In this document: positions 769 to 18,902 of the stretch, in pieces
Numbering within the stretch: position 1 is the first letter of the stretch
Layout of the letters: the number at the start of each line of letters is the position of its first letter
IMG/VR virus record: IMGVR_UViG_3300029822_000436
Coordinates: 1 to 18,902 of that record
Direction: 5' to 3' (one strand)
DNA length: 18,902 nt
Source of the DNA: a virus
Notes under the pieces: generated by a model
What the model was told of the DNA's origin: nothing
The model's database searches: none
The model's input: the letters and a program-made list of their open reading frames with translations, nothing else
Translations under genes and position numbers: made by a program

Positions 769-774
769 CAACTA

Positions 775-798
775 AAAGCGGTTCGGAAAAACCGCTTT
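775..798 (+). terminator. Hairpin after gene 6 (weak terminator or attenuator, or RNA-stabilising element)
   Basis: A 9-bp stem AAAGCGGTT/AACCGCTTT with loop CGGAAA. There is no real T-run after the stem, so termination would be partial at best. Confidence 0.3.
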
Positions 799-886
799 AC
801 ACCCTTCATACCAAAAGGGGCATATAATTACACACTAGCAAGACCAAATCAAAAAAACTAAAACAACTTAAAAGGGGTCAATTAAA

Positions 887-1435: not shown

Positions 1436-1447
1436 GGGGTGGCTTAT

Positions 1448-2499: not shown

Positions 2500-2538
2500 A
2501 AGGGCTAGAAAAATACCCTAAATTTTAGGGGTGACGTA

Positions 2539-4278
2539 ATGGCACGGAAAAAATTCAGTTGCGACTTTGAAACAACAACAAAAATAGATGATTGTCGTGT
2601 GTGGGCTTATGGTTATATGCAGATAGGCAAAAAGTCAAATTACAAAATAGGGAACAGTATGGACGAATTTATGGAATGGGTGGAATTGGTTAAGTCGGAT
2701 TTATATTTCCACAATCTAAAATTCGATGGTTCATTTATTGTCAATTGGTTATTAAAAAATGGTTACGAGTATTCAGAAACACCAACAGCAAAAACGTTCA
2801 AAACAACCATATCAAGTATGGGGCAATGGTACATCATTGATATATGTTACGGTTTCAAAGGCAAACAAAAACTTCATTCCGTGATATACGACAGTTTAAA
2901 AAAGCTACCGTTTCCAGTAAAAAAGATTGCAGTTGATTTTAAGTTGCCGATATTAAAAGGCGATATTGATTATCACACCGAACGACCTATTGGGCATGTT
3001 ATTACAGAAGAAGAATATCAATACATTAAAAACGATATTGAAATCATTGCCGATGCATTGGAAATTCAATTCAAACAAGGTTTAGAAAAAATGACAAATG
3101 GTTCGGATAGTTTAACCGATTTAAAAAACATTATGTCAAAGAAAATGTTCGAAAAACATTTTCCAGTTTTCAGCTTGAAAATGGATAACGAGGTTCGGCT
3201 TGCATATCGTGGAGGGTTCACGTGGTTAAACGACATACATAAAAATAAAGTTGTTAATGAAGGTATGGTATTTGACGTAAATAGTCTATACCCTTCCGTT
3301 ATGTATAATCGTTTATTACCTTATGGATTCCCGATATATTTTGAAGGTGAATATAAAGAGGATGAAAGTTATCCGTTATATATACAAAAAATACGTTGTG
3401 AATTTTATTTAAAAGAAAACAAAATACCGACAATACAGATTAAAGGCGACGACAGGTTTAAAGGAACTGAGTATTTAAAAAACAGCAAAGGTGAAACAGT
3501 CGAGTTAGTTGTATCAAATGTCGACTTGAAACTAATTCAAGATAACTATGATTTATATGATATTGAATATTTGGGCGGTTGGAAATTCAAAGGGAAATCC
3601 GGTTTGTTTAAGGATTTCATTGACAAATGGACGTATGTAAAAATCAACAATGACGGTGCTGTTAAGGCGCTTGCAAAATTAATGTTGAATGCTTTATACG
3701 GAAAGTTCGCAACAAACCCGGATATAACAGGTAAAATCCCATACTTAAAAGATGATGGTTCATTAGGTTTCAAAATGGGAGATGAAGAATTCAAAGAACC
3801 TGTCTACACGCCAATGGGTGTATTTATAACATCATACGCTCGGGAACTGACAATTAGAACTGCTCAAAGTTGTTATGATAGAATTATTTATTGTGATACA
3901 GACAGTATTCATTTAACAGGTACTAATATTCCAGATTCTATTAAACATTTAATTCATGACGATAATTTAGGAATGTGGCAACATGAAAGCACGTTCAAGC
4001 GGGCAAAGTATATCAGACAAAAAACATATATCCAAGAATTATACGAAAGACAAAACACAAAAGGCAAATGGATAGGTGCTGGCAAAACAAATTATGAACG
4101 TTTGAAAACTTCCGTCAAGTGTGCGGGTATGCCGGATAATGTCAAAAAATTAGTAACATTCGATAACTTTGAAATCGGGTTTTCCGCACCTGGAAAATTA
4201 GTTCCAAAACAAGTTGATGGTGGCGTTGTATTAGTCGACAGTATTTTTACAATCAAAGAAGGAGGTTTAATATGGTAG
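2539..4278 (+). CDS. gp2: Protein-primed family B DNA polymerase
   Basis: Exo motifs are CDFETTT, HNLKFDGSFIVNWL and YIKNDIEII. Pol motifs are FDVNSLYPS, KLMLNALYGKF and YCDTDSIH. It is collinear with phi29 DNA polymerase along its whole length (579 vs 575 aa). Confidence 0.98.
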   Translation: MARKKFSCDFETTTKIDDCRVWAYGYMQIGKKSNYKIGNSMDEFMEWVELVKSDLYFHNLKFDGSFIVNWLLKNGYEYSETPTAKTFKTTISSMGQWYIIDICYGFKGKQKLHSVIYDSLKKLPFPVKKIAVDFKLPILKGDIDYHTERPIGHVITEEEYQYIKNDIEIIADALEIQFKQGLEKMTNGSDSLTDLKNIMSKKMFEKHFPVFSLKMDNEVRLAYRGGFTWLNDIHKNKVVNEGMVFDVNSLYPSVMYNRLLPYGFPIYFEGEYKEDESYPLYIQKIRCEFYLKENKIPTIQIKGDDRFKGTEYLKNSKGETVELVVSNVDLKLIQDNYDLYDIEYLGGWKFKGKSGLFKDFIDKWTYVKINNDGAVKALAKLMLNALYGKFATNPDITGKIPYLKDDGSLGFKMGDEEFKEPVYTPMGVFITSYARELTIRTAQSCYDRIIYCDTDSIHLTGTNIPDSIKHLIHDDNLGMWQHESTFKRAKYIRQKTYIQELYERQNTKGKWIGAGKTNYERLKTSVKCAGMPDNVKKLVTFDNFEIGFSAPGKLVPKQVDGGVVLVDSIFTIKEGGLIW

Positions 4279-4451
4279 GTTGTAAAACAAAAGCGATGTT
4301 GTCAGAAGAAATTAAGTACAGTATTCTCAAAGAACTGAATCACGTTTACAATGCATGTTACAACGGGAACGAGGAACATTTGTGTGAGGGATTGGAACTT
4401 GCGATTATCACAATTACTAATTTAAAATTCGGAGGGAAAAACAATGCGTAA
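4272..4451 (+). CDS. 59-aa hypothetical early protein (position of phi29 gene 1/56 region), not in the ORF track
   Basis: RBS GGAGG (4261-4265) lies 6 nt upstream of the ATG, which overlaps the polymerase stop (ATGGTAG). Translation is MVGCKTKAMLSEEIKYSILKELNHVYNACYNGNEEHLCEGLELAIITITNLKFGGKNNA. Confidence 0.5.
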   Translation: MVGCKTKAMLSEEIKYSILKELNHVYNACYNGNEEHLCEGLELAIITITNLKFGGKNNA

Positions 4452-4620
4452 TAGGTGGTTGGTTACATTCACATGTGAAAAAGAGGATAGTACATTCTAT
4501 CAAGTAGCAAACGAGGTTGATAGTTTAGTAAAAGTTTCACGGTTGATTCTATCATTTCAACCAAAGAAAAACAGCAAACTAGTTCAAATCAACATTGATG
4601 ATATATTAACATTATTTTGA
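4444..4620 (+). CDS. 58-aa hypothetical early protein, not in the ORF track
   Basis: RBS GGAGGG (4431-4436) lies 7 nt upstream of the ATG. It overlaps the previous ORF by 8 nt. Translation is MRNRWLVTFTCEKEDSTFYQVANEVDSLVKVSRLILSFQPKKNSKLVQINIDDILTLF. Confidence 0.5.
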   Translation: MRNRWLVTFTCEKEDSTFYQVANEVDSLVKVSRLILSFQPKKNSKLVQINIDDILTLF

Positions 4621-4645
4621 CAAATACATAGGATAGTGCTATACT
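4617..4645 (+). promoter_or_regulatory. Near-consensus sigma-A promoter driving the pRNA (phi29 A1 analogue)
   Basis: TTGACA (4617-4622), a 17-nt spacer, then extended -10 TGcTATACT (4637-4645). The predicted start is about 4651-4653. Confidence 0.8.
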
Positions 4646-4651
4646 TATCTA

Positions 4652-4871
4652 TATGAGGGGTAGCACTTCCTATAACATTTAGTCTGTTGGGTTTATCCGC
4701 ATTGAGTTGCGCCAACACTTTTGGTAGGTGATTCCTATTAGTGTTACAAGTGTCTATTACTTCATACACTCAAAACCATCCAAAAGCCCAAAAGCTATAA
4801 CGGATGGTTTTACTAATTTATCCTCATAAATTTAACATATGGAATAGGGATGGTTACCCTATTCTTTTTTT
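4652..4871 (+). ncRNA. pRNA: Packaging RNA (pRNA): core domain I about 4652-4767, plus a 3' domain II ending at the terminator
   Basis: There is direct similarity to recalled phi29 pRNA. GGUAGCACUUCC matches GGUACUUCC, and UGUUGGG...CCAACA matches UGUUGGGG...CCCACA. The hairpin CGCA-UUGAGU-UGCG (4698-4711) matches phi29 CUGA-UUGAGU-UCAG, with an identical loop and covarying stem. A 5'/3' helix joins 4652-4666 to 4750-4766, and a D-like hairpin lies at 4723-4739. No convincing ORF is present. Confidence 0.85.
4842..4871 (+). terminator. Rho-independent terminator ending the early/pRNA transcripts and insulating the late operon
   Basis: Stem GAATAGGG/CCCTATTC (4842-4849 and 4857-4864), a 7-nt loop, then seven T residues (4865-4871). 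Confidence 0.85.
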
Positions 4872-4889
4872 GTGTTCAAAAACAACTAT

Positions 4890-4903
4890 GTTTCACGTGA
4901 AAC
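4890..4903. promoter_or_regulatory. Perfect 14-bp palindrome GTTTCACGTGAAAC (candidate operator)
   Basis: The sequence is exactly self-complementary and is centred about 100 bp upstream of the predicted late start. The 16-mer ATGTTTCACGTGAAAC recurs at 17495-17510. Confidence 0.4.
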
Positions 4904-4931
4904 AAAAAATAGAAAAATAACAATTTTTGTT
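4901..4931. promoter_or_regulatory. Candidate p4 activator site: AACAAAAA-15 bp-TTTTTGTT
   Basis: A perfect 8-bp inverted repeat with a 15-bp spacer and outer AAC/GTT, as in the phi29 p4 site. Its centre (4916) is about 80-82 bp upstream of the predicted late start. phi29 p4 site 3 is centred at -82 of promoter A3. Confidence 0.5.
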
Positions 4932-4982
4932 CTATTAATTTCATTTGTGAACCGGATAATGAGTGTAGGATGTTAGACTAGA

Positions 4983-4991
4983 TGGTATAAT
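4983..4991 (+). promoter_or_regulatory. Late promoter (A3 analogue): extended -10 without a recognisable -35
   Basis: TGgTATAAT at 4983-4991. The -35 position (4963-4968, GTGTAG) is poor. The predicted start is about 4996-4998, some 35 nt before the gene 7 ATG. Confidence 0.65.
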
Positions 4992-5032
4992 AAGAATGTA
5001 AGATATTATTAAAACAGGAAGGATGTTGCAAA

Positions 5033-5335
5033 ATGCCAATGAGCAAGGAAGAACATGAAGCGTTACTAAATGAGTTACTAGGAGCAGACGTAGAACAATC
5101 AAGACGTACAGAAATCTTACAACAGCTACGAACTGATTACGGTACTGTCCACGCTGATTTCGAAAACATCACAACAAACAATCAAAAGTTACAAGCGAAT
5201 AATGACGACTTGATTATTTCAAATAGTCAATTGTTCCGACAGTTGGGTGTTGTTGGTGGTAATCAAGAAATGCAAAAACAGGAAGAACAGAAAACGTTTT
5301 CCGAAACAGTAACAATTGAAGCACTTGAAAAATAA
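5033..5335 (+). CDS. gp7: Head scaffolding protein
   Basis: MPMSKEEHEALLNELL....ILQQLR..YG......DDLIISNSQLFRQLG....ETVTIEALEK is collinear with recalled phi29 p7 (MPLKPEEHEDILNKLL...ALQQLR...DDLIVSNSKLFRQIG...ETITIEDLEAK). Confidence 0.9.
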   Translation: MPMSKEEHEALLNELLGADVEQSRRTEILQQLRTDYGTVHADFENITTNNQKLQANNDDLIISNSQLFRQLGVVGGNQEMQKQEEQKTFSETVTIEALEK

Positions 5336-5359
5336 TAACCGAAATGGAGAGAAAAAATT

Positions 5360-6685
5360 ATGACACGTATTACCTTTAAAGATGTAAGTACAAGTTTAGG
5401 TGTTAATGAATCCTACGACATTGTAAATGCTATTCGAAATTCAAATCCAAACTTTGCAAACTATGTACCACTTGCAACAGCAGAAAACGTTGCAGAAGTT
5501 GGTGCGGGTATTCTTATCAATCAAACAATTCAAAATGAATTTATCACATCATTGGTTGACCGTATCGGCTTGGTTGTTATTCGCAATGTATCGTTAAACA
5601 ACCCATTGAAAAAATTCAAAAAGGGACAAATGCCATTAGGTCGTACCATTGAAGAAATTTTCACTGATATTACAAAGGGTAAAAAATACGACCCGGAAGG
5701 CGCAGAAGAAACAGTTTTCAAACGTGAAATTCCAAACGTAAAAACTTTATTCCATGAACGAAACCGACAAGACTTTTATGAACAAACAATTCAAGATGAT
5801 TCATTAAAAACCGCATTCGTTTCATGGAGGCATTTTGAATCATTCATTTCTTCTGTAATTAATGCGATTTACAACAGTGCAGAGGTTGAAGAATATGAGT
5901 ACATGAAATTACTTGTTGACAACTACTTTGCAAAAGGATTATTTACAGTCGTAAAAGTCGACAAGCCTGATACAGAAACAGCAGCACGAAACTTTGTTAA
6001 AAAATTGCGTGCAACAGCGACAAAATTAACGTTACCAACAGGCTCACGTGATTTCAACTCATTAGCAGTTCGCACACGTTCGGATGTAAACGACTTACAT
6101 TTAATCATTGATGCTGACCTGAATGCTGAAATGGATGTTGAAGTTCTAGCACGTGCGTTCAATATGAACAAAACGGATTTCATCGGAAATGTTACAGTAA
6201 TTGACGGATTTTCTAGTACAGGTCTTGAAGCGGTTTTAGTGGACAAAGAGTGGTTCATGGTTTATGACAACTTGATGAAACTTGAAACCATCCGAAATCC
6301 GAAAGGTCTTTACTGGAATTATTTCTACCACGTTTGGCAAACACTTTCAGTTTCACGTTTTGCAAATGCAGTTGCGTTCGTTTCGGGTGACATTGCCCCT
6401 GTTACACAAGTGATTGTTGACCCAACAATTTTGGCATTACGTCAAGGTCGTTCATTTACATTCACGGCATATGTTCGTGAAAATGACAATGCGGGGCGTG
6501 AAGCGGTTTGGTCGGTTGAAGGCATGAATGGAACAGTAGTTGCATCGGGAACAACAATTGATGAAGGTACGCTAACAGTTGGCGATACACAGACAGGACA
6601 ATTGATGGTAAAAGCAACCGTAACATACGGTGAGGTTGATACGGAGACGGAAGTTGTTGGAGAATCAATCGTTACCATCGTATAG
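5360..6685 (+). CDS. gp8: Major capsid protein with C-terminal Ig-like (BIG2-type) domain
   Basis: Position and size match phi29 gp8 (441 vs 448 aa). The C-terminal 90 aa ([16 protein letters not shown]...VWSVEG...TGQL.VKATV) look like a bacterial Ig-like group 2 domain, as in phi29 gp8. Confidence 0.88.
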
Positions 6686-6701
6686 AAAGGATTGATTTTA
6701 C

Positions 6702-8465
6702 ATGACTGTTCCATTGAGTGGAACGGACATTCGACTTTTGTCGGGTGTCCAATTCTCAAATGATTATAAAAATACGAGATGGTTTGACACAAAAAGTGAA
6801 CAAACCACACACTTTTTAGCAAGACCACGAATACAGTCCATTAGTCAAGTGAATTTTCAACGCATTGAAGGACGACATTTCTTTTCATCAAATGCAAGCA
6901 TTGATGAGCTATGGGGTGCAAACTATTTCATGTTTAAAAATCCATCATCTCATAGTGATAAATGGTTTTATGCATTTGTAACGGAACTGGAATATGTACG
7001 TAAAAATGTAACACATGTTCATTTTGAAATTGATGTGTTGCAAACATGGATGTTTGATATGAACTTCAAACCGTCTTATATTGTTCGTGAACATTGCGAC
7101 TTATATAAAACAGATGGAACACCTGTCATTAACACAGTTGAAGAAGGTCTAAATTATGGAACTGATTACGACATAGTAAGTGCAGAACATTTTAAACCAC
7201 CAAACGACTTGTATTATTTGGTTATTGTGACGAAATCTTTGATTCATAAAGAAGGCGATGCAGTTGCAAACGATATAAAAGCAAGTGTTGTCGGTATACC
7301 ACAACCACTATGTTATTATGTTCACCCTATCCGTAAAGATGGAACAAGCCCAAACGTTTCAATTGGTGGGTCAACAGTCAACTTAACAGATATGACAGAA
7401 CTACTATCAAATATCTACTCACAAGATGATGCAGTTGACAACATTGTTTCATTGTTTATCACGGAACATATTGGGTATACACCAACAGGTGGTTCGGGGT
7501 TTGACTTTGATTCAGATATATTCTCAAAAGCAATGATTGCAGACGATGTCAATCAAAATATTGACACAATCTATGTCAAAGAAATACGGGAATTTTTACC
7601 ACACGTTATCAATTGCGGTCGTAAATATGATGGGTTTAAAGAGGTTCGTGAATCAAAACTTTTAATGTATCCTTATTGTGTAACCATTTTAGATGATTTT
7701 AAAGGGAATCAATTCGAAATTAAAAACGAGTACCTTGACAGTGAAAATTTAAATGTTTCCGTTAGGGGTTCATTGGGTGTTTCAAATAAAGTCGCTTATA
7801 CAGTGTCTGCATATTTAACAGGACAATCGGGACTTTCAAGCGATGAAAAAATGCGCATCAATTTAGGTCAAGGTTTTATTAATACAAACCCACAAGACAT
7901 TCCCATTATTACGGACATGCTTTCCGCTTTCCTGCAAGGGAATCGAAACAGCATTGAAAACCAACAAAATTCTATTATGTGGAATGGTGCAATGAATGCA
8001 ATCGGCGGTGCTATTGGTGGTGCAACCACGGGTGGTGTTGCGGGTGCTGTAACTGGTGTTGTTGGTGGGGCGGGAAATACTGTTTTACAACTACAAGGCA
8101 TTCAAGCCAAACAAACCGACATAAATAATACACCCCCACAATTGGTTAAAATGGGTGGTAATACGTCTTTTGATTTTGGTAACGGGTATACCGGGTTTTA
8201 CGTAATCAAAAAACAGATTAAAAATGAATACATCAAAAAGCTATCTGACTTCTTTATGATGTATGGTTACAAAGTGAATGAGGTAAAAGTACCAAATTTC
8301 CACACTAGAAAATCATACAATTTTGTTCAAACGGCAACATGTAATATAACAGGGAACTTCAACAATGACGATTTACAGAAGTTAAAAAGTGTGTTTGATA
8401 ATGGTATCACATTATGGCATGTGAATGACATTGGAAACTATGAACTAGAAAACGGGGTGATATAA
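6702..8465 (+). CDS. gp9: Tail knob (distal tube) protein
   Basis: The N-terminus [26 protein letters not shown]...[12 protein letters not shown]....[16 protein letters not shown] matches recalled phi29 gp9. A Gly-rich membrane-active loop ([24 protein letters not shown]) is present. It is 587 vs 599 aa. Confidence 0.92.
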
Positions 8466-9361
8466 TGGCACGAAAACGGAGGGGTTATCAAAATCCAAAC
8501 CAATTACAAGCACAGGAAGGCAATACTTGGTATCAACATTATTTCCAATATTTAAACTCATTAGCCTATCAATTATTTGAATGGAAAAACCTTCCTGATA
8601 GTATCGACCCACGTTATCTTGAAATGTCGTTGAATATGTTCGGTTATGTTGGATTCTTTAAAGATAAAAGTTTGGGGTACATTGCAACACAGGGTGCACC
8701 ATCCGGTAGGGTTGACCATTACTTATTACCTGATACATTCCATGCAGTTTCACCAACTTACAATCACACATTCAAGTTATTTAATTATAACGATATTAAA
8801 ACAGATAACATGGGCGTTATCATTTGGAATAATGACTACCATTTCCCAACAACACCTTCACTATCTTTGTTTGCAAAAGAATTAGCGGAAACACAGGAAG
8901 TTATCAGTGTCAATCGTAATGCACAAAAGACACCTGTTTTATTATCAGCAAACGATAACACGAAATTCAGTATTCAAAACATCTATAATCAGTATGAAGG
9001 GAATGCACCTGTTATTATCACACATGAGGATATTGACCCTGAAACAATAAAGGTGTTCAAAACGGATGCACCGTATGTTGTCGATAAGTTAAGAACCGAC
9101 CGTGATAAAATATGGAATGAAATCATGACCTATTTAGGTATCAAAAATGCTAACCTTGAAAAGAAAGAACGGATGGTGACTAGCGAGGTCAACAGCAATG
9201 ACGAACAAATCACGGCTAGTGGAAACATCTTTTTAAAATCAAGACAGGAGGCATGTAAGAAAATTAATGACTTGTACGGGTTAAATATTGAAGTCGATTT
9301 TAGGGTTGAAACGATTGAACAAATGCAATCACAAGTTAAGGGTGAAGGAGGTGAAAATTAA
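8465..9361 (+). CDS. gp10: Head-tail connector (portal, upper collar)
   Basis: [81 protein letters not shown] and the other segments are collinear with phi29 gp10. The start overlaps the gp9 stop (TAATG). Confidence 0.95.
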
Positions 9362-10638
9362 TGGCATCGTATACCATGCAGTTGCGGGAATATATTGAGA
9401 GTTATTCACAAGACAATGAAATGCTTTCCAATCGTGACCGAATTAAAATAGGGCGTGAAAAATTATTCGATTTTGAATATCCTATATTTGACAAAGATTA
9501 TAAAGCGGTTTTTGAAACAAATTTTATCCGTAATTTTTACATGCGGGAAATAGGGTTTGAATCAGAGGGATTATTCAAGTTTCAATTGGAAACATGGTTG
9601 TTAATTAATATGCCTTACTATAACAAGTTATTTGAAAGTGAATTAATCAAATTCAATCCACTTGAAAGTTATAGTTTGAAAACAACCTATCAAAAGAAAA
9701 ATGATGTGAAGCAAGACGAAAATAGAAACCGCACTCAAAACGACAATAAAATAATTGAACAAAACGACAAAACGAAAAATAATGAAAACGAAGTTCAAAA
9801 CAATATTCAAACGGATAGTACAAGCCGAACACAAAATGATAAGTCAAATAAAACTCAAATTGATGATAGAGATATTATCCAAAATGATGAAACGAATTTA
9901 TCACAAAACGGTAATACCACAACAGATACAACTAATTCAAACAATGAAACAACAAACCGTGAATCAACAGTTGACAGTGAATCAAATACAGAAAACAAAG
10001 TTGACCGTGAAAACAAAGGAAAGTCAACCGAAACAACAGATGATTTCAGCAGACAGATTGACAGTGATACACCTGATACACGTTTGCAGTTAACAGCAAA
10101 AGACGGTGAGGGTGCAATCGAATACGCTAGTAAAATTACTGAAAATACGGACAACGACAAGAAAACCGCAACTTCAGAAAGCACGGAAAAACAAAACGAA
10201 ACTTCGGACAGCACATCATTAGTGACTACCAAAGAGGACGGGTCAACAAGTAATGAAGGTGATTCACATTCCGATACAAAAGTTGTCAATGATGAACAAG
10301 GCACGTTAACAAGTACAATTGGCGATAAACTAGTGAGTGATACAACAGATACTTTTACAAGTAATATCAAAGAGGATTTCACTACTAGTCAAAACAACCA
10401 AAAGAACAACACAACAGACGGTTCATTGGAAAGTAAAATTAACGACAACTTGACAAGCGATGTAAAGGATTCATCGGTTTCTACAATCAACGATATTGAA
10501 GATTATATCGAAGAAAAAGTAGGTAGTATCGGTGTCAAAACTTACTCTGAAATGATAATGGAATATCGTGAATCATTGTTGCGAATTGAAAAACAGATTT
10601 TTAAAGAAATGAACGAACTATTTATGCTCGTTTATTAG
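9361..10638 (+). CDS. gp11: Lower collar protein with a greatly expanded low-complexity central region
   Basis: The N-terminus (YTMQLREYIE...KLFDFEYPIFD..YK.VFETNFIRNFYMREIGFESEGLFKFQLETWLLINMPYYNKLFESELIKFNPLE) and the C-terminus (EDYIEEKVG.....Y..MIMEYRESLLRIEKQIFKEMNELFMLVY) match phi29 gp11. It is 425 vs 293 aa because of an N/T/D/S/E/Q-rich insert. Confidence 0.92.
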   Translation: MASYTMQLREYIESYSQDNEMLSNRDRIKIGREKLFDFEYPIFDKDYKAVFETNFIRNFYMREIGFESEGLFKFQLETWLLINMPYYNKLFESELIKFNPLESYSLKTTYQKKNDVKQDENRNRTQNDNKIIEQNDKTKNNENEVQNNIQTDSTSRTQNDKSNKTQIDDRDIIQNDETNLSQNGNTTTDTTNSNNETTNRESTVDSESNTENKVDRENKGKSTETTDDFSRQIDSDTPDTRLQLTAKDGEGAIEYASKITENTDNDKKTATSESTEKQNETSDSTSLVTTKEDGSTSNEGDSHSDTKVVNDEQGTLTSTIGDKLVSDTTDTFTSNIKEDFTTSQNNQKNNTTDGSLESKINDNLTSDVKDSSVSTINDIEDYIEEKVGSIGVKTYSEMIMEYRESLLRIEKQIFKEMNELFMLVY

Positions 10639-10648
10639 GAGGGTTAAC

Positions 10649-11986
10649 ATGGATAAACCGAATTTTACAAAATCACCGCAAATACCCATGATGCGGATTC
10701 AAGGGTATGAACGTTATTTACCTTCTGCATTTGATGAAAGTCTATCCATTTTACAAAAGATTAATAAAGTCATTTATCAATTAAACAATATCGGTTTAAT
10801 TACAAATGATTTAATCAAAAAATGGAATGAATTAATGGAATGGATTGTTGGTAATGGGTTGACTGAAATCGTTAGTGACGAAATCGACAAACGAATTGCA
10901 GATGGTACATTTGACGAATTAATCTATCGTATTGTAGGCGATTTAACAACACTAACAACATCAGAAAAAGATAATCTAGTAGGTGCGATAAATGAAATTA
11001 ATAAAATCGCAACCGATAATAAAACAGCTATTGGAGACATTTCAGAACTAACAACAGATGAAAAAGAAAATCTTGTTCTTGCTATCAATGAATTGAAAGC
11101 ATTCACAGACATTAATAAACAAGCTGTTATCACAATCGGTGAAGCGACAGGATTCGGTGTTATTAGTGGGTTGAAAGTTGTACAACAAAAAGTATTGTCG
11201 ATGGGTGTTGATGTTGGTGATTTGACTACACCTAACATTGTTCATCTACCAAACGGTGAGCGATATACCCTGACAAGTATTGCTATTCCCATTGCGGAAT
11301 CGCATAACACGTTAAACCGTTACGACATTATCTTTGTAAACAGTCAAGGTAAAATCGAGTACAAAGAGGGTATTTTGGCAATCGACCCACGTCCACCTGT
11401 ACTTCCCGATAATTCGGTTTTACTCGCTGAGATATTTGTTCAAGCGAATGATACAACAATTAATAATGTTGACATTATCGACAAACGACCAATCAAAACT
11501 TTAAACGATTTGAAAACGCAAAAGAAGGATAATTTTGTACAATCGATTAATGAATTAGTTGATTCGATCGCAACGGTTAGAATTGAACTAGATGAACTGG
11601 AATCAACAACGGCTACAAATATTGCAGACGCTATTGCAGAAGTTACAGAAAATTTCATGACAAATTTAAACGATTTAGAGGAACGTTTTGGAATAGAGTT
11701 GGCAGACGTTGAAACAGGTTTAAATCAATTGATTGGAAATCTTACACTTTTATCGACAGATATTAAGACTGATATCGTATCAGCTATTAATGAGTTAGTT
11801 CAAGTGAACACTGGACAAAATTTACTCATTACACAAAACGCAAATAAATTAATTGTAAGTACGACAAAACCAACAACACAGAAAGATGGTGACATTTGGT
11901 ATCAAACAAGCACTGAAAATTTACCACCATTATTAACAAATACCATCACAGTAAGTCCTACAATGGGGTTAAAATTAGAGGAGTGA
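10649..11986 (+). CDS. Tail fibre/appendage protein with repeated (D/E)xLVxAINEL motifs
   Basis: It sits in the structural operon between gp11 and the gp12-like spike. Repeats are EKDNLVGAINEINK, EKENLVLAINELKA, KDNFVQSINELVD and KTDIVSAINELVQ, plus a coiled-coil-like composition. There is no phi29 counterpart at this position. Confidence 0.6.
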   Translation: MDKPNFTKSPQIPMMRIQGYERYLPSAFDESLSILQKINKVIYQLNNIGLITNDLIKKWNELMEWIVGNGLTEIVSDEIDKRIADGTFDELIYRIVGDLTTLTTSEKDNLVGAINEINKIATDNKTAIGDISELTTDEKENLVLAINELKAFTDINKQAVITIGEATGFGVISGLKVVQQKVLSMGVDVGDLTTPNIVHLPNGERYTLTSIAIPIAESHNTLNRYDIIFVNSQGKIEYKEGILAIDPRPPVLPDNSVLLAEIFVQANDTTINNVDIIDKRPIKTLNDLKTQKKDNFVQSINELVDSIATVRIELDELESTTATNIADAIAEVTENFMTNLNDLEERFGIELADVETGLNQLIGNLTLLSTDIKTDIVSAINELVQVNTGQNLLITQNANKLIVSTTKPTTQKDGDIWYQTSTENLPPLLTNTITVSPTMGLKLEE

Positions 11987-11990
11987 TAAA

Positions 11991-13901
11991 ATGGCTAATT
12001 TAAGAAAAGCTAGAGCGCAATTAATAAGTGGTGAAAACGGTGAGAATGTTGAGGATGTGGATATTCTCACTTCTGCTGACGCTGTTTCCTTTTCAGATGG
12101 TAGAAAATTAACAGAAGTTGAAACAACAATTACTCAGCAATTGGCACAAACTGCAACGCAACCCGTAAGAAATTTAGCATATGGTGATGTTAATGTTGCC
12201 GGTAAAAACATTAGTCGTACAATCGTAACTTTTATCTCGGACGACGGCTTTATAGAAGATTACACAAAACTGAAACCCATATTTGAAGCCGAGAGAGTTC
12301 CATTTTCTCCAGCAATCGTAAGTGATTGGGTTGGAAATTCTCGTTGCATGAGCGTTTCGCAGATTAAAGAAATCGAGAATATGGGTTGTGAAATTTTAGG
12401 GCACACTAAAACTCATCCCGAACTAGGTACACTTACGGAAGCACAACTCGAAAAGGAGCTGAAAGAGTCAAAATCCGCTTTAAAATCAATGGGTTTCGAT
12501 GTGAACCACATTGTATATCCTTACGGAAGTTACAGTAATTTAGTAAAGAAAATTGCACGCAAATATTACCGATCAGGCTATTTGTTTGGCAACACAGCAC
12601 AGACTAACTCTCAACCGTATGACACTTACGCTATTAAACGAATTGCACTAGGTTCTTATTTTGACCGACCATCTTCCGAGTTTCCTGTAACCAATACTTT
12701 CAATGATTATTATAAGCCGATGGTGGACAAGGCTGTTGCCAATAAAGAATGGCTAATTATTACATTACATCCGGGGGCATCAAACGGAGAATTTACGGCA
12801 GAACAACAAGGTTATTTGACGCAAACAATCCAGTACATCAAGTCACTTAATATCCCCATCAAAAACCCGACTGACGTTCTAAACGAACTGGGTAACTTGA
12901 TTGATGTTGTGGGATATACCGAAACCAATCAAGAAATCCCTTTCAAAATAGGAGCTAACGGAAAATTAGTTTCAACAGGAATAACTCAATCGGCAACAAT
13001 AATATTGAATGCTAATGAAAGAAATGCTATGTCGAAGGAATCCGATTTCGAACCGGGATATGTTACACATGTATTGGTTTCTTCTGCTAATGCATCTGGC
13101 ACACCTAACGGCAAAGGTGGTGTATTAGTCACAAATAGAACGATTCAAGCGAAAATGGGACTTACAGGAAACTTAACTACACAGACCTTTTATGAAATTT
13201 CACCATCAACAGGTGTTAGTGGCAAGGTGTATGTAAGGACTGCATCGGCGGGTGTGGATTATCCGTGGGGGCAATGGGAGGTAATTAACGAAAATAAATC
13301 CAATAGACTGACTGATAACCAATTGCCATCAAACACCCCACCAACAGGATTTCCAACGGGTAAAACAACAAGTCAAACATTCAATTCGTCCGGCAATAAA
13401 AGTGATTTACCTAATTTATCTTCGGGGACACTTCACACTTTTAGACATGAGACTGCCGCCTATAACGATTTCGCTTACCAAGTTTTTTACGCAGTGGATG
13501 GGAATATATACACTAGAAGGCACAGCGTAGGAGGAGCTTGGGGAGGTTGGCGAAAAGTAGTTACGGCAAGTGTTGATGGTTATTTTGATAATTTGAAAAA
13601 TAAAGGCGTAGTGGTAAATGAACAAAAAACATCTGCGCCATCTACATCGTCTATCAGCGTTGCAAATAAAAGTCGGATTGTGTTAAATACCGTAACCAAT
13701 AACGTAATCAACAATTTAATTGATGGAGTAGAGGGTCAAGAAATTATTCTGTTGAATACGAGCGGGCAGTCGATTACCTTAAAGCACTTAGCAAATGCAA
13801 ATGATGGATTTATAAACCTGGAAGGAGCTACCGATTACGTTTTAAAAGAGTTTAAGCCGATTAAATTAATTAAGTTTACAAACTCTTGGTACGTATTCTG
13901 A
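11991..13901 (+). CDS. Tail fibre / receptor-binding protein carrying a CE4 (NodB) polysaccharide deacetylase domain and two knob-like C-terminal repeats
   Basis: The fibre-type N-terminus is DILTSADAVSFSDGRKLTEV. NodB motifs are FISDDG (D84, D85), HTKTH (H138, H142), VYPYGS and IITLHPG. Two repeats of the G.L......Q.FY......Y.R......W..W..V type lie at about aa 376-432 and 479-524. Confidence 0.7.
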   Translation: MANLRKARAQLISGENGENVEDVDILTSADAVSFSDGRKLTEVETTITQQLAQTATQPVRNLAYGDVNVAGKNISRTIVTFISDDGFIEDYTKLKPIFEAERVPFSPAIVSDWVGNSRCMSVSQIKEIENMGCEILGHTKTHPELGTLTEAQLEKELKESKSALKSMGFDVNHIVYPYGSYSNLVKKIARKYYRSGYLFGNTAQTNSQPYDTYAIKRIALGSYFDRPSSEFPVTNTFNDYYKPMVDKAVANKEWLIITLHPGASNGEFTAEQQGYLTQTIQYIKSLNIPIKNPTDVLNELGNLIDVVGYTETNQEIPFKIGANGKLVSTGITQSATIILNANERNAMSKESDFEPGYVTHVLVSSANASGTPNGKGGVLVTNRTIQAKMGLTGNLTTQTFYEISPSTGVSGKVYVRTASAGVDYPWGQWEVINENKSNRLTDNQLPSNTPPTGFPTGKTTSQTFNSSGNKSDLPNLSSGTLHTFRHETAAYNDFAYQVFYAVDGNIYTRRHSVGGAWGGWRKVVTASVDGYFDNLKNKGVVVNEQKTSAPSTSSISVANKSRIVLNTVTNNVINNLIDGVEGQEIILLNTSGQSITLKHLANANDGFINLEGATDYVLKEFKPIKLIKFTNSWYVF

Positions 13902-13946
13902 GTTATAGTTCCAAATTGTGTAGCAGTAAAAAAGGAGATGTTGTAA

Positions 13947-15644
13947 ATGGATGTTATTAATAATTTAAGAATAAGACAAAAAGTGGGTGATAAATACAAT
14001 GTATTATTACCCGAAACTTCTTTGCAACAAGTACAAGACTTAACAACAGGGAAAAGACTATCAGAAATCATTGGAACACTTGACAACCTAAACACGTTCG
14101 AAAAAGAATCAATTGTTAAAGCTATTAATGAAACATTGATTGAAGTAGAAAATGTTTCGAATAAAGTGGGGAATCTTGATGAGCTGAATACGATTATAAA
14201 ATCGAATACAGTTGTCGCCATCAATGAAATTATCAACCGTCTCGAAAACTTAGGAGAATCAGATTACTCAAAAGTCACAAAAGGTGAGTTTGCTATCAAC
14301 GTAAAAGATTACGGTGCAAAGGGTGACGGTGTAACAGTTGATACACAGGCATTCAAAGATGCAATAGCGGTAGCCAAAACAAAAGGGAAAATGTTATACA
14401 TCCCAACAGGGGTTTATTGGACAGACAGTTTGACCATTCCAAGTGGTATGACAATTCAAGGTGACGGTATCACTAAAACAATTTTAAAACTTGTTGCAAA
14501 TTCAACAGACGCATTACTTGTTATTACAGAACAAAATGATGTGACATTACGAGGGTTTACCGTTGACGGAAATTCTCAAAATCATGTTGCGGGTTCAACT
14601 ATCATTTTTTGGAAATCAAGACGCAATATGGTCGATAATATCAAGGTGGTCAATTCAGCAACAATTGGTTTGAACATGTCAAACGTTACGGATAGTAGAA
14701 TCCAAAATTCACATTTTGATGGGACAACGGAAAACTGCGTAGTCTCATTCAGCAATGACAATCAAGAATATTCAATTGGGAATAATACCGTTGTAAATAA
14801 TATCATGGAAAACGGTGCATTGGATGGTATCATTTATAACACAATCGGTGGAATCATTACAGACAACGTTTTCTTAAACAATGGTAAACGTCAAGGATGG
14901 ACGGCGGGTGGTGTGTATGCCAATAACAAATACTATCTAACGATTGCGAACAATTTAATCATTGGAAACAACGGAAACGGGGTTGACTTGATTGATTGCG
15001 GTAATTCGATTGTAACAGGTAACTCATGTCGTGATAATAATTCGGCGGGTATCATGTTTGCAAACTGTAAAAATAGTAATATCGAAAATAACGTATGTGT
15101 AAACAACGGCGTTCAACCTGCCGTTGACCAAGATGATGGAATTACAATCTTAGGCGGTTCACAACTTATTATTTCCGGGAATCGTTGTTTTGACGGTAAG
15201 ACAGTACGAACTCAAACACACGGTATTCACTTACTAGATAATGCTAATAACATCATCATTGCAAATAATTTATGCACGGATAACAAAGAAAATGATGGCA
15301 TCAAACTGGAATCAACGACAAGCGATATTTTACGCAGTGCGAATAAACCGATGCCGTCAGACCTACCAAGTGAAATGAATATCCTGTTCAATTTAACAGA
15401 AGGACAATCCAAAACACTGATTGGAAATAAACGAATTTCAATCATCGAATTGGTTGACAAAAGTTTGAGGGCATATGCAAAAATATTTGTTCGTGGAACT
15501 GACAACACATTCACGGTGTTAGAAAGTCCGGTGTCAGGAATGGAAACAGAAAACACATTTAGTTTCGTTGGTGATAACTTTACTATAACAAATAATCGTG
15601 CGGGGACTGCGTACTATTCCTATCGCATAACATATGTGGATTAG
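13947..15644 (+). CDS. gp12: Pre-neck appendage / tailspike with pectin-lyase-fold right-handed beta-helix (gp12-like, shorter)
   Basis: INVKDYGAKGDGVTVDTQAFKDAI.....LYIP.G.Y is the classic N-cap of Pectate_lyase_3-type beta-helix proteins. Repetitive N.G/NN.. rungs follow (IANNLIIGNNGNGVDL, VTGNSCRDNNSAGI, IENNVCVNNG, ISGNRCFDG, IANNLCTDN). The N-terminus again has xIVKAINE and xVVAINEI motifs. It is 565 vs 854 aa in phi29, and no C-terminal autochaperone is recognisable. Confidence 0.75.
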   Translation: MDVINNLRIRQKVGDKYNVLLPETSLQQVQDLTTGKRLSEIIGTLDNLNTFEKESIVKAINETLIEVENVSNKVGNLDELNTIIKSNTVVAINEIINRLENLGESDYSKVTKGEFAINVKDYGAKGDGVTVDTQAFKDAIAVAKTKGKMLYIPTGVYWTDSLTIPSGMTIQGDGITKTILKLVANSTDALLVITEQNDVTLRGFTVDGNSQNHVAGSTIIFWKSRRNMVDNIKVVNSATIGLNMSNVTDSRIQNSHFDGTTENCVVSFSNDNQEYSIGNNTVVNNIMENGALDGIIYNTIGGIITDNVFLNNGKRQGWTAGGVYANNKYYLTIANNLIIGNNGNGVDLIDCGNSIVTGNSCRDNNSAGIMFANCKNSNIENNVCVNNGVQPAVDQDDGITILGGSQLIISGNRCFDGKTVRTQTHGIHLLDNANNIIIANNLCTDNKENDGIKLESTTSDILRSANKPMPSDLPSEMNILFNLTEGQSKTLIGNKRISIIELVDKSLRAYAKIFVRGTDNTFTVLESPVSGMETENTFSFVGDNFTITNNRAGTAYYSYRITYVD

Positions 15645-15654
15645 GTGATATAAA

Positions 15655-16767
15655 ATGGTAGTTGTAGCAAATAGATTTTTAACCTTAGAAGAAATGACAA
15701 TTAATGCGGAATATATTCTTTCCGCATTACTTTCAAAAGGATGGTCAAAAAATGCGGTTGCCGGTATGTTAGGTAACATGCAGACCGAAAGTACCATTAA
15801 CCCCGGAATTTGGCAAGACCTTGCAGAAGGTCGTTTGGACTTAGGGTTCGGGTTAGTACAATGGACACCCGCTAGTAAGTATACAAATTGGGCTGATTCA
15901 AAGGGGTATCAGTGGACAGATATAGAAGGACAATTGGAACGTTTACAATATGAGATAGACAACAATATCCAATGGATACCAACAGTTGATTATCCTATGT
16001 CGTTCAACGAATTTAAAACGTCAACCGAAACACCCGAATATTTGGCGCAGGTATTTTTACGAAATTATGAACGACCCAACGACCAAAATCAGCCAGACCG
16101 TAGCACACAAGCTCGTTATTGGTTTGAAAATTTAACGGGAACGGGTGGACAACCCTGTTTACAGTTGGCACAATTCCCAATGGATATGATACGCATTACA
16201 CAAGGAGAGAATGGGCAATATTCACACATGGGAATCCTCGCAATAGATTTCGTGGGTTCACACAACCAATACCCATATTATGCCCCATGTGATTGTGAAT
16301 GTGTTGCATCCTTCAATGACGTTGCAGTTTGGCGGTCAACACATGAGGTCATGTGTGCGGATGGACAGAAACGAAAAATATTTTGGTCTTGTATCCATGA
16401 AGTGCCATTGTCTCATACAGAAGGAACATTATTGATGAAAGGCGAACTCATGGGACATACAGGTGTTGGTGGTACAGCAACAGGTGACCATTTACATTTG
16501 CAAGTTATGTTGGGTGACGAATATTTGGGGTTTACACGTAACGCACAAGGGGCATCTACATTAGTAGGAACTGAACTACACATTTATGATGTGTTTTCCG
16601 TGGGTGGTGTGGATATTGTAGACGGTTACGGGTATCCGTGGAAGATTAGTGATTATGTCGATTGTAGCGAGGGTGGCGGTGGTGAGAATCCTAAGCCACC
16701 TATAAAGAGAAATAATGTAATCATAAAACTTCTATTATGTGATGCACTAAACGGTTGGAAATACTGA
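15655..16767 (+). CDS. gp13: Tail-associated peptidoglycan hydrolase (N-terminal lysozyme-like domain plus M23 metallopeptidase)
   Basis: N-terminal GWSKNAVAGMLGNMQTESTINPGIWQ...GFGLVQWTP is the phage tail lysozyme motif. The C-terminal half has M23/LytM signatures (H..G.LAIDF ... GDHLHLQV). Position and size (370 vs 365 aa) match phi29 gp13. Confidence 0.88.
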   Translation: MVVVANRFLTLEEMTINAEYILSALLSKGWSKNAVAGMLGNMQTESTINPGIWQDLAEGRLDLGFGLVQWTPASKYTNWADSKGYQWTDIEGQLERLQYEIDNNIQWIPTVDYPMSFNEFKTSTETPEYLAQVFLRNYERPNDQNQPDRSTQARYWFENLTGTGGQPCLQLAQFPMDMIRITQGENGQYSHMGILAIDFVGSHNQYPYYAPCDCECVASFNDVAVWRSTHEVMCADGQKRKIFWSCIHEVPLSHTEGTLLMKGELMGHTGVGGTATGDHLHLQVMLGDEYLGFTRNAQGASTLVGTELHIYDVFSVGGVDIVDGYGYPWKISDYVDCSEGGGGENPKPPIKRNNVIIKLLLCDALNGWKY

Positions 16768-16801
16768 ATGTTGATGTGAATAAAATTAGGAGTTGATAAA
16801 A

Positions 16802-17032
16802 ATGAAGGTAATGTTGGACAAAATGGAGGTGTATGTCCTAGTGTCACATTTAATCATTACGTTAGCAATAATTGGGGTGTACTGCTACACACTAATAACA
16901 GGGCAAGGGGACGAAACTCTTAAAACGATTTTGACTGTAATTGTCGGTTATTGGTTCGGTTCAATGGGTGTGAATGCAATTAAACCTGCTAACCAAAACA
17001 ACATTGAAACATCAAAGGAGGTTGAAAAGTAA
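16802..17032 (+). CDS. Putative holin (two predicted TM helices)
   Basis: It lies immediately upstream of, and overlapping, the endolysin start. Hydrophobic stretches are VLVSHLIITLAIIGVYCYTLI and ILTVIVGYWFGSMGV, and the C-terminus is charged. RBS AGGAG (16788-16792) favours the ATG at 16802 over the TTG at 16793. It is much shorter than phi29 gp14 (76 vs 131 aa). Confidence 0.7.
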   Translation: MKVMLDKMEVYVLVSHLIITLAIIGVYCYTLITGQGDETLKTILTVIVGYWFGSMGVNAIKPANQNNIETSKEVEK

Positions 17033-17730
17033 TGGAACTATCTGAAACAGGTTTGGCTTTTATCCAAGCACATGAAGGGTTAAGTTTAACATGGTATGAA
17101 TTGAATGATGGTGGCTTAACGGTTGGTTATGGACATTACGTTCCGCATGCAACAGCTAAAAAACAAGGAATTAAAAAAGGTGATAAAATTACCCGTGAAC
17201 AAGCCCGTGATTATTTGAAACAAGATATTAAACGGTTTGTAGATGGGACAAACAACCAATTGAAACATTACGGGTTTGACGTAAATCAAAACCAATTTGA
17301 TGCACTTGTATCATATGCTTTCAATCGGGGATTAGGTAACAGTAAAGCAACAAACGGGTTACGACAATTATTAAAGAACTCGAAAAGTGTGGCTGACATT
17401 GGAAAGAATCTACTTGTATATTGGGGTACGAATAAGCATTATAAAAACGGGTTATTGAACCGCAGAAATGCTGAAAAGAAATTGTTTGAATCAAATGTTT
17501 CACGTGAAACCATTATTAAAGAAAATGAGGTGGATGAATTGGAATTTTCAAGTCCAACACTAAAACAAATGTATAAAGACCGAATTGAATCACCGAATAC
17601 GATGCAACTATTAGATGCAAAAGCGGTTGAAGTATTAAAACACCAATCAAAACTAAAAAACGGAAAATTAACAGATGGCGACATGAATGCAATTGCGCTT
17701 GAACTCGCTGTTCACTATGCTAAACAGTAA
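17032..17730 (+). CDS. gp15: Endolysin: GH24 (T4-lysozyme-like) muramidase with an unassigned C-terminal domain
   Basis: GLAFIQAHEGLSL..Y....GGLTVGYGH fits the catalytic E...D...T arrangement of phage lysozymes, as do FDALVSYAFN.G and GLLNRR.AE. The last 75 aa show no LysM pattern. Confidence 0.9.
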   Translation: MELSETGLAFIQAHEGLSLTWYELNDGGLTVGYGHYVPHATAKKQGIKKGDKITREQARDYLKQDIKRFVDGTNNQLKHYGFDVNQNQFDALVSYAFNRGLGNSKATNGLRQLLKNSKSVADIGKNLLVYWGTNKHYKNGLLNRRNAEKKLFESNVSRETIIKENEVDELEFSSPTLKQMYKDRIESPNTMQLLDAKAVEVLKHQSKLKNGKLTDGDMNAIALELAVHYAKQ

Positions 17731-17743
17731 AGGATGATGGAAA

Positions 17744-18742
17744 ATGGAAAAGTCGTTGTATTATAACCCCAACAAAATGTTGTCTTATAATCGTATCTTA
17801 AATTTTATTATCGGTGCACGTGGTATTGGTAAATCATATGGGATGAAGGAATTTCCAATCAAACGATTTTTAAAATACGGTGAACAATTTATTTATGTAA
17901 GACGGTACAAAACCGAATTACGTAAAATCAGCAACTATTTTGATGATGTGAAATCGGCTTTTCCCGACCATACATTCAAGGTAAAAGGACGGCAGTTATT
18001 CATTGACGATAAATTGTTCGGTTGGGCAATTCCATTATCAGCATGGCAAAGTGAAAAATCCAATGCCTATCCGAATGTTACAACGATTGTATTTGATGAA
18101 TTTATTCGAGAAAAGGATAATAGCGGGTATCTCCCGAATGAAGTTTCCGCACTATTAAACTTGATGGATACTGTGTTTCGTGATAGAGATAATGTAAGAA
18201 CCGTTTGCTTATCCAATGCGGTGTCGGTGGTAAACCCCTATTTTCTGTACTTTAATATTCAACCGAATATCAATAAACGATTTAATGCTTATCAATCGTT
18301 GTTAGTAGAAATACCCAATTCAAAGGACTTTTCGGAACAACGTAGAAAGACACGTTTCGGTGAACTAATTGACGGTACTGAATACGGTGATATGTCATTA
18401 GACAATGAATTTACAAATGATAGTGAAGTGTTTATTGAAAAGCGTAGTAAGAATAGTAAGTATCAATTTAGTGTCGTGTACAATGGTATGACATTTGGTG
18501 TTTGGGTTGATACGAATTTGCGTGCGATGTATTTGTCGACAGACACAGACCCATCTAGTAAAAATGTTTATGCATTGACAGCGAGTGATTTGAATGAGAA
18601 AACGTTGTTGATGATTGGATGGAAAAATAACTATCATTTAAAGAAGTTGGTTAGCGCATTCAAGAATGGATTGTTGAGGTTTGATAATCAAGTGATTAGA
18701 ACGACAGCTTATGAGATGTTTAAAAAGATGAATATAAATTAG
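17744..18742 (+). CDS. gp16: DNA packaging ATPase
   Basis: It is 332 aa, the same length as phi29 gp16, and collinear with it throughout. Examples are MEKSLYYNPNKMLSYNRILNFIIGARGIGKSY (Walker A), TIVFDEF (Walker B), NEVSALLNLMDTVFR and LSNAVSVVNPYF. Confidence 0.97.
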   Translation: MEKSLYYNPNKMLSYNRILNFIIGARGIGKSYGMKEFPIKRFLKYGEQFIYVRRYKTELRKISNYFDDVKSAFPDHTFKVKGRQLFIDDKLFGWAIPLSAWQSEKSNAYPNVTTIVFDEFIREKDNSGYLPNEVSALLNLMDTVFRDRDNVRTVCLSNAVSVVNPYFLYFNIQPNINKRFNAYQSLLVEIPNSKDFSEQRRKTRFGELIDGTEYGDMSLDNEFTNDSEVFIEKRSKNSKYQFSVVYNGMTFGVWVDTNLRAMYLSTDTDPSSKNVYALTASDLNEKTLLMIGWKNNYHLKKLVSAFKNGLLRFDNQVIRTTAYEMFKKMNIN

Positions 18743-18766: not shown

Positions 18767-18813
18767 TTGTTATTTGTGTGTAACATTATTGCTTGAATAA
18801 TGCAAGGATAAAT

Positions 18814-18902
18814 TGCACGAAAGTTTGTGTGGAAATGTGCTTGACAAATGGTTAAATATTGTGTTTGGGGAAATGAGGGGAAATGTGCGTGGTATATATT
18901 AC
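18814..18902. repeat. Right inverted terminal repeat (ITR-R) and origin of protein-primed replication
   Basis: Mirror image of 1-89. 18840-18902 is a perfect reverse complement of 1-63. Confidence 0.95.

Follow-up and report, generated by a model that had tools for sequence, protein, structure and literature searches.

The viral window analysed here, IMG/VR record IMGVR_UViG_3300029822_000436, is the complete linear genome (18,902 bp) of a phi29-like podophage. One of its late genes, the open reading frame (ORF) of 636 codons that we call ORF636, probably encodes an active, virion-borne deacetylase of the CE4 (NodB) family, to judge from its sequence and a structural model. We predict that this protein is a fibre or appendage component of a new phage of the phi29 group. 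Phage phi29 is the model for podophage adsorption to Gram-positive walls, and in the accepted picture it uses a single appendage, gp12, which degrades teichoic acid. The present genome suggests that a phi29-type chassis can carry a split appendage set of three genes, including a predicted deacetylase. ORF636 is one of many CE4-bearing phage fibre proteins, a large family whose members have been annotated yet not characterised. New are the occurrence of a CE4 fibre in the phi29 group, the split of gp12 over three genes and, within this family, the combination of NodB2 motifs with a canonical topology.

The ORF636 gene (11991..13901; + strand, as for all genes and domains of the window located below) comprises 636 codons plus a stop and is preceded by a good Shine-Dalgarno sequence, AGGAGTG. 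The original prediction, made from the letters of the window alone, had placed a CE4 domain at 12213-12890, that is residues 75-300, and had named a Pfam hidden Markov model search and a structural model as checks; both checks supported the domain. Pfam family PF01522 (Polysacc_deac_1) matched residues 79-192 with an E-value of 2.5e-15 and 56.9 bits, against a curated cut-off of 23.1, and it was also matched by all 80 aligned relatives. A first AlphaFold2 model, built from 14 sequences, had a mean predicted local distance difference test score (pLDDT) of 61, was poor outside the CE4 domain and was superseded by a model built from 80 sequences with a mean pLDDT of 80.8. In this second model the domain spans residues 78-300 (12222..12890) with a pLDDT of ~98, and its strands and helices alternate as in a distorted (beta/alpha) barrel.

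Comparison of the model with solved structures gave a uniform picture. The top Foldseek matches in the PDB were all CE4/NodB proteins (E-values from 6e-11 to 1e-6), among them 8qpg (the HFTV1 turret protein), the esterase 7ax7, BA3943, SpPgdA (2c1g), PplD (6dq3), PdaC and Bc1960, and the target-normalised template modelling scores against single-domain CE4 enzymes were between 0.65 and 0.75. When the family profile was compared with the PDB, PplD (6dq3) was the best match with an E-value of 2.8e-23, followed by 6go1 (1e-20) and by BA0330/BC0361 (4v33, 4hd5; ~1e-16 to 1e-15). The CE4 domain in ORF636 is therefore real, far beyond chance. Assignment to a narrower class was not obtained, as PHROGs held no family for ORF636 and the NCBIfam CE4 equivalogs (PdaA, PdaB, NodB, PgaB, HfsH) gave at best 25.9 bits relative to cut-offs of 237-400.

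To judge the catalytic residues, conservation was counted in an alignment of 157 sequences, consisting of the query and 156 relatives with ~25-45% identity to it. The NodB signatures named by the original prediction were found in order and in the expected places. Motif 1, FISDDG (residues 81-86), contains at 12240..12245 the putative catalytic base D84, which would position the water, and the metal ligand D85. Both residues were present in 157 of 157 sequences; the model places them where strand 78-83 ends, and they align with D167/D168 of PplD. Motif 2, HTKTH (138-142; 12402..12416), supplies the two metal-ligand histidines, of which H138 was invariant (157/157) and H142 was found in 150 of the 157 sequences (96%); they align with H223/H227 in the HTVNH motif of PplD. 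Motif 5 is represented by L259-H260 (12765..12770) within LHPG (259-262; 12765-12776), and its presumed catalytic histidine H260 was again invariant (157/157). In the model, strand 254-259 ends at H260, and the alignment pairs this residue with LLHD, the motif 5 of the CE4 esterase 7ax7. E134 was conserved in 91% of the sequences. In the model, the C-terminal ends of the barrel strands hold all catalytic residues, in keeping with the location of CE4 active sites.

Motif 3 is a variant. YPYG (176-179; 12516..12527) retains the Pro and Gly of the CE4 consensus RxPY(G), with P177 in 155 of the 157 sequences (99%), but the canonical Arg is replaced by V175, and the four commonest residues at this position in the alignment (V, A, C and I) do not include Arg. 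A candidate substitute that could tether D84 is R217 (12639..12641), which was conserved in 105 of the 157 sequences and is modelled within strand 215-220. This residue, in the segment 'IKRIALG', aligns with R302 of PplD ('NRIR') and with 'IKRHFVG' of 6go1; in PplD, R302 forms a salt bridge to the catalytic Asp D167 (PMC8807736). No motif 4 (DxxD(W/Y)) was found between motifs 3 and 5 of ORF636. D246 was considered as its equivalent and set aside, since it falls midway along helix 237-250 and its counterpart in 7ax7 is an Asn without a catalytic function; its role is probably structural. K242 (12714-12716; 96%), D246 (12726-12728; 99%) and Y282 (12834-12836; 100%) are conserved like the catalytic residues, though the helices that carry them lie apart from the expected active-site face. 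The description of the enzyme as catalytically intact thus holds for the metal triad, the base and the acid, which are 96-100% conserved; it does not extend to the motif-3 Arg, which is absent, or to motif 4, which was not found. The predicted catalytic machinery may fairly be called 'apparently intact', and from it we infer activity.

These deviations are characteristic of a known subgroup. In the NodB2 group, which includes PgaB, BpsB, IcaB, PplD and BA0330/BC0361, motif 3 reads AYPYG, a different strand contributes the Arg and there is no motif 4 (PMC10967932, PMC8807736). Of these proteins, PplD and PgaB/IcaB show activity even though they have neither the motif-3 Arg nor motif 4 (PMC8807736, PMC10967932). 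ORF636 displays the same pattern, with VYPYG, with R217 corresponding to R302 of PplD, and with motif 4 not found. Specifically, it shares with PplD of Streptococcus pyogenes (6DQ3) and the rest of the NodB2 group the DD pair, HTxxH, an Arg-less 'AYPYG'-type motif 3, the Arg on a later strand and the want of a recognisable motif 4. However, NodB2 proteins are circularly permuted and carry their catalytic His (VLMYH) before motif 1, whereas H260 of ORF636 follows motif 3, as in NodB1 proteins, and the 157-sequence alignment contains no conserved His before D84. The Foldseek alignments extended over 226-236 columns for canonical NodB1 structures and over only 146-188 for NodB2 structures, which fits this permutation difference, even though the NodB2 matches had the lowest root mean square deviation (rmsd; 2.2-2.5 A) and the highest identity (22-25%). 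Because the motif pattern matches NodB2 while the invariant H260 follows motif 3, the domain is best described, from its alignment and model, as carrying NodB2-like motifs in an unpermuted topology. This combination bears on the origin of the permuted deacetylases of the PgaB/PplD type. A further difference is that NodB2 proteins are cellular membrane proteins or lipoproteins, whereas ORF636 is a predicted component of a phage fibre.

The sequence affinity of ORF636 to PplD, PgaB and IcaB leads us to favour de-N-acetylation as its chemistry. A chemical variant of the deacetylase reading is an O-acetyl esterase that acts on N-acetylmuramic acid or on a secondary wall polysaccharide, and that would either uncover a receptor or open the wall to cleavage by the endolysin and by the lysozyme domain of gp13. 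Such an activity has some claim on structural grounds: CE4 acetyl-xylan esterases account for several of the best fold matches over the full length (7ax7, 7fbw, 5lfz, 2c71 and 2cc0). In addition, the virion deacetylases known from Gram-negative phages are O-acetyl esterases according to the available portions of the reports, and it is O-deacetylation, not N-deacetylation, that sensitises peptidoglycan to muramidases. On the other hand, the closest profile relatives are N-deacetylases or their kin (PplD, PgaB/BpsB, IcaB), and similarity of CE4 folds does not predict N- versus O-specificity. We consider the O-acetyl esterase conceivable, though rather doubtful. The original prediction had also suggested that the deacetylase could sensitise the wall to the gp13 lysozyme. 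For an N-deacetylase this suggestion is at odds with what is known, as de-N-acetylated peptidoglycan resists lysozyme (PMC8807736), and only O-deacetylation would have the proposed effect.

The remainder of ORF636 has the appearance of a fibre. Residues 1-74 (11991..12212) are modelled, with low to medium confidence, as an N-terminal helical neck (helices 2-13 and 40-63). Downstream of the enzyme follow two knob domains, at residues ~345-431 (13023..13283) and ~445-525 (13323..13565), with pLDDT values of 83-96 over most of residues 345-525. As the original prediction had held, the two are repeats of each other: hhalign aligned residues 341-433 with 440-526 at a probability of 99.8% and an E-value of 4e-29. 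The family profile matched the knobs of R1/R2 pyocin fibres (6cl5, E 5e-6; 6cl6, E 5e-5), as did Foldseek (6cl6, E 5e-7), and knobs of the pyocin-fibre type are common in saccharide-binding fibres and spikes (PMC11871291). The C-terminal domain (residues ~543-636; 13617..13898), presumed to be the distal tip, is possibly a beta-sandwich of the depolymerase type. Here the match to PF25692 (Phage_depo_C) had an E-value of 2e-4, below the cut-off, and the pLDDT was low. A Pfam scan of ORF636 gave no beta-helix match. Like ORF636, the R1/R2 pyocin fibres of Pseudomonas aeruginosa (6CL5, 6CL6) have two tandem knobs followed by a C-terminal receptor-binding domain, but they lack an enzyme domain and end in a lectin-fold 'foot', whereas ORF636 has a CE4 domain and a weakly Phage_depo_C-like C-terminus.

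The relatives of ORF636 point to the same context. An exhaustive HMMER search of 1.84 billion cluster representatives returned 312 relatives (clusters at 50% identity) with E <= 1e-30. Most top matches cover query residues ~45 to 525 in one continuous stretch, and most top relatives therefore have the enzyme-plus-knobs layout. In prophages with tail modules of the siphovirus type, homologues are encoded at the distal end of the module, after the genes for tape measure, Dit and Tal and before those for holin and lysin, and the homologue of Clostridium phage phiCp-D occupies the same tail-module position. The baseplate anchor BppU_N is present in 7 of the 80 aligned relatives. Among predicted viral structures in BFVD, the matches included Arthrobacter 'minor tail proteins', a 'tail fiber', gp673 of Bacillus phage G and BppU_N proteins of Lactococcus and Enterococcus phages, with A0A345MPX4 aligned over 490 columns. 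Together with the pyocin-type knobs and the position of the gene in the late operon between gp11 and gp13, these data support the fibre context that had been proposed from the sequence. A side observation concerns one prophage relative, L002, where a gene for a Wzy_C membrane protein (8592-9827) lies directly after the CE4 fibre gene within the tail module. Wzy_C proteins are O-antigen polymerases or ligase-like, and this gene possibly brings about lysogenic conversion through a change in the same surface polymer.

CE4 tail proteins have thus been annotated before in phages of Gram-positive hosts, including the 'polysaccharide deacetylase' of phiCp-D, the 'tail fiber' of Staphylococcus phage Madawaska, 'glucosaminyl deacetylase' and minor tail proteins of Arthrobacter phages and a protein of Bacillus phage BCP8-2. 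Their CE4 domains are homologous to that of ORF636 (25-42% identity), and several share the CE4-plus-knob layout, for example in Staphylococcus phages (query residues 69-432) and in A0A345MPX4. The original view that esterase or deacetylase spikes are known mainly from Gram-negative phages needs to be qualified accordingly. The same view held that none was known in the phi29 group, and this applies throughout the 50,697 phage records that we searched: a homologue of the CE4 domain was detectable in only 16 of them, and none of these 16 is phi29-like or has a genome under 38 kb. All of the phages concerned are siphoviruses or myoviruses, and their genomes measure 38 kb or more, in contrast to the phi29-like phage of 18.9 kb described here. 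Single-protein scans of IMG/VR and of JGI metagenomes revealed no relatives, and profile scans of phage and metagenome collections retrieved only 5, 1 and 2 loci, none of them phi29-like.

A search of the literature on CE4 phage tail proteins of Gram-positive hosts and phi29-like phages found no biochemical study. As far as the available parts of the sources go, it yielded instead SGNH-type deacetylases of Gram-negative phages, annotations, and the CE4-like turret protein gp31 of HFTV1. The latter (8QPG) was the top Foldseek match to ORF636 in the PDB (E 6e-11, rmsd 3.0 A over 236 columns) and was also matched by the profile (E 1.8e-7). HFTV1 gp31 has a virion-borne, trimeric CE4-like domain in which a Zn site was observed, and it has been proposed to modify host glycans in adsorption; its authors found no bacteriophage homologues (PMC12494034). 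Similarity to ORF636 has its limits, since gp31 is a capsid decoration of an archaeal virus with ~15% identity, and ORF636 is a predicted appendage protein. Moreover, in gp31 a carbohydrate-binding module precedes the C-terminal CE4 domain, whereas in ORF636 the CE4 domain precedes the knobs.

ORF636 is one of three genes in the gp11-gp13 interval, where phi29, Chedec 11 and DLc1 have a single appendage gene. The first of the three, ORF445 (10649..11986), encodes a fibre or adaptor protein that carries at residues 3-107 the N-terminal collar-attachment domain of phi29 gp12, which the structure of the phi29 tail resolves, as indicated by BLASTP (43% identity to gp12 residues 4-108, E 5e-28), by the pre-neck appendage structure PDB 6qz9 (E 5e-25) and by tail-fibre PHROGs. 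Beyond this N-terminus, ORF445 contains repeats of the 'KxNLVxAINEL' type, which also occur in the N-terminus of ORF565. The central domain of ORF445 (~160-335) weakly resembles DUF4815 as well as proteins of Rhizobium phages that bear the annotation baseplate wedge or peptidase S74; no matches to phi29-like phages were found for this central part. The third gene, ORF565 (13947..15644), encodes a right-handed, pectate-lyase-like beta-helix (PF12708, PF13229) that resembles the enzymatic body of gp12: its residues 114-211 are 33% identical to gp12 residues 102-202, the start of the gp12 helix, and match PDB 3gq7 with E 7e-8. ORF636 itself showed no similarity to gp12 in BLASTP, including the collar-binding N-terminus, and its residues ~14 to 75 are common to many family members in non-phi29 contexts. 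A docking motif common to the N-termini of ORF636 and ORF565 was considered and rejected, as the resemblance was seen by eye and had no BLASTP support.

The gp12-type functions are in this way distributed over ORF445 and ORF565, and ORF636 occupies the same gp11-gp13 slot as gp12, presumably with the same general role, that is an enzymatic interaction with a wall polymer in adsorption. The difference is that gp12 is a beta-helix depolymerase acting on wall teichoic acid and ORF636 a predicted deacetylase. The gene lies within the late operon, whose sole + strand terminator follows gp16. Upstream of the three genes, the gp11-like lower collar (9361..10638; tblastn, PDB 6qz9, PHROG adaptor Ad4) is enlarged, with 425 residues compared to 293 in phi29, and only residues 1 to ~174 and 374-425 align with phi29 gp11. 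The ~200-residue insertion in this collar is without a Pfam match and might serve the additional appendage proteins as a further docking domain. Since the gp12 collar-binding domain sits on ORF445, attachment of ORF636 is probably indirect, and we envisage a branched or multi-component appendage in which ORF636 would be mounted on ORF445 or on the enlarged gp11 collar. The split appendage points to a modular route for changes of host or receptor.

Several observations weigh against an active, virion-borne enzyme. With respect to activity, the motif-3 Arg is missing and motif 4 was not found, the proposed substitute R217 is kept in only 67% of the relatives, the inactive proteins BA0330/BA0331 are among the closest solved relatives, and the CE4 pseudoenzyme BA3943 is among the Foldseek matches. 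With respect to the virion, BLASTP recognised no anchoring domain in ORF636, its N-terminus was poorly modelled, and the homologue of Bacillus phage BCP8-2 adjoins endolysin and terminase genes outside the tail module.

The first set of observations would be explained if the CE4 domain were a catalytically silent, lectin-like glycan-binding module that has kept its groove and metal site. This has been proposed for BA0330/BA0331, which retain the triad, the Asp and the His, yet showed no deacetylase activity and serve to bind peptidoglycan (PMC4505593). In particular, BA0330 binds Zn, acetate and peptidoglycan but was inactive on all substrates tested (PMC4505593), and BA0330 and BC0361 are among the best matches of ORF636 in both sequence and structure; like them, ORF636 lacks the motif-3 Arg, and no motif 4 was found in it. 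Conversely, D84, H260 and the metal ligands are invariant or nearly so over the 157 divergent sequences, as expected under selection for catalysis, and binding alone would require neither H260 nor D84. PplD, the best solved match, departs from the canonical motifs in the same way and has proven enzymatic activity, and the inactivity of BA0330 may stem from an Arg near its catalytic His (PMC4505593). We therefore regard a silent binding module as unlikely.

The second set would suit a soluble late protein outside the virion, which upon release at lysis would act on wall debris and neighbouring cells, destroying receptors so as to free progeny or block superinfection, or assisting lysis; although ORF636 has no recognisable collar- or baseplate-binding domain, the BCP8-2 homologue lies beside an endolysin gene, and a late-operon position is no proof of a structural role given that holin and endolysin share the operon, this is improbable in view of the two appendage-type genes that flank ORF636 upstream of gp13, the tandem knobs and C-terminal beta-sandwich typical of trimeric fibres, and the BppU_N anchors or tail fibre and minor tail annotations of its relatives.

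As a virion-borne deacetylase, ORF636 would presumably be trimeric and be organised from the virion outwards as a helical neck (1-74), the enzyme (78-300), the two knobs (~345-525) and a small beta-sandwich. Its link to the particle would probably be indirect, through ORF445 or through the enlarged gp11 collar, and it would form one arm of an appendage with three components. With its distal knobs and tip it would bind a glycopolymer anchored in the wall of a Bacillus-like host, after which the CE4 domain would strip acetyl groups off the bound polymer. The likeliest target would be the N-acetyl group on residues of the N-acetylglucosamine (GlcNAc) or N-acetylmannosamine type in teichoic acid, in a secondary cell-wall polysaccharide or in an exopolysaccharide resembling poly-N-acetylglucosamine, an O-acetyl group being less likely. 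Catalysis could proceed as in PplD, with the metal bound by D85, H138 and H142, the water placed by D84, which would be tethered by R217, and H260 acting as the acid or as acid/base. Modification of the receptor could make binding reversible and remodel the receptor. Together with the beta-helix enzyme ORF565, the protein might carry the phage through the polymer layer in the manner of the esterase spikes that Gram-negative phages direct at O-antigen or capsule. Conceptually, the SGNH-esterase spikes of Acinetobacter phage Aristophanes and Pectobacterium phage Possum are comparable, being described in the available parts of the reports as virion enzymes that deacetylate rather than cleave a polysaccharide receptor. 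Unlike the CE4 metalloenzymes, SGNH proteins have a serine esterase fold and mechanism, and no SGNH spikes were among the matches to ORF636.

A more far-reaching version of this scheme is speculative and, in our estimation, unlikely. It supposes that the CE4-knob family is an unclassified NodB subclass, the unpermuted counterpart of NodB2, that ORF445 (as the anchor), ORF636 and ORF565 form a three-part appendage on the enlarged gp11, and that adsorption needs de-N-acetylation of GlcNAc in a wall polymer, for instance in the linkage or backbone of teichoic acid or of a secondary wall polysaccharide. If true, the present phage would be the first one of a Gram-positive host whose entry depends on deacetylation. 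With its 18.9 kb genome, the phage would be a very tractable system for learning what CE4 fibres remove and from which wall polymer. The same system could serve to determine whether entry needs receptor deacetylation, and whether such enzymes could be of use in remodelling Gram-positive walls.

The window is taken as a complete linear genome because both ends are inverted terminal repeats (ITRs; 1-120 and 18783-18902). The outermost 63 nt of the two ends are perfect reverse complements of each other; over the first 100 positions 95 match, and the similarity has faded by ~120 nt. These repeats are far longer than the annotated 6-bp ITR of phi29. Pfam and PHROGs identified, all on the + strand, genes for p6, a protein similar to single-stranded DNA-binding protein (SSB), gp4, the terminal protein and a B-family DNA polymerase, followed by those for the scaffold, the major capsid protein, the gp9 tail knob, the gp10 connector, the gp11-like lower collar, the gp13 tail lysozyme, a lysozyme-type endolysin and the gp16 packaging ATPase. 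The phi29 capsid protein and its counterpart here share 75% identity, and megablast of the ORF636 gene and of the whole window against phage and metagenome collections returned no near match. By its phi29-type genes, by this capsid identity and because no phage record is close to it in DNA sequence, the genome is a new member of the phi29 group.

Its organisation differs from that of phi29 in several respects. In phi29 the left early operon lies on the opposite strand, divergent from the late operon. Here, the early genes (493-4278), which are p6 (493-768), the SSB-like gene (887-1435), gp4 (1439-1828), the terminal protein gene (1717-2499) and the DNA polymerase gene (2539-4278), are co-oriented with the late genes (5033-18742). 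Between the DNA polymerase and scaffold genes is a gap of 750 bp (4279-5032) that contains only short unannotated ORFs. At Rfam gathering thresholds no part of the window matched a phi29-type packaging RNA, and no head-fibre gene (gp8.5 in phi29) is present between the capsid gene and gp9 (6685-6702). On the 3' side of gp16 only the terminator and the ITR were seen, and not a right-hand early operon (gp16.6 to gp17). Base composition was uninformative as to a recent horizontal acquisition of the ORF636 gene, as its GC content of 39% (genome, 36%) falls within the 33-41% range of the other late genes. The capsid protein has retained its C-terminal Big_2 domain.

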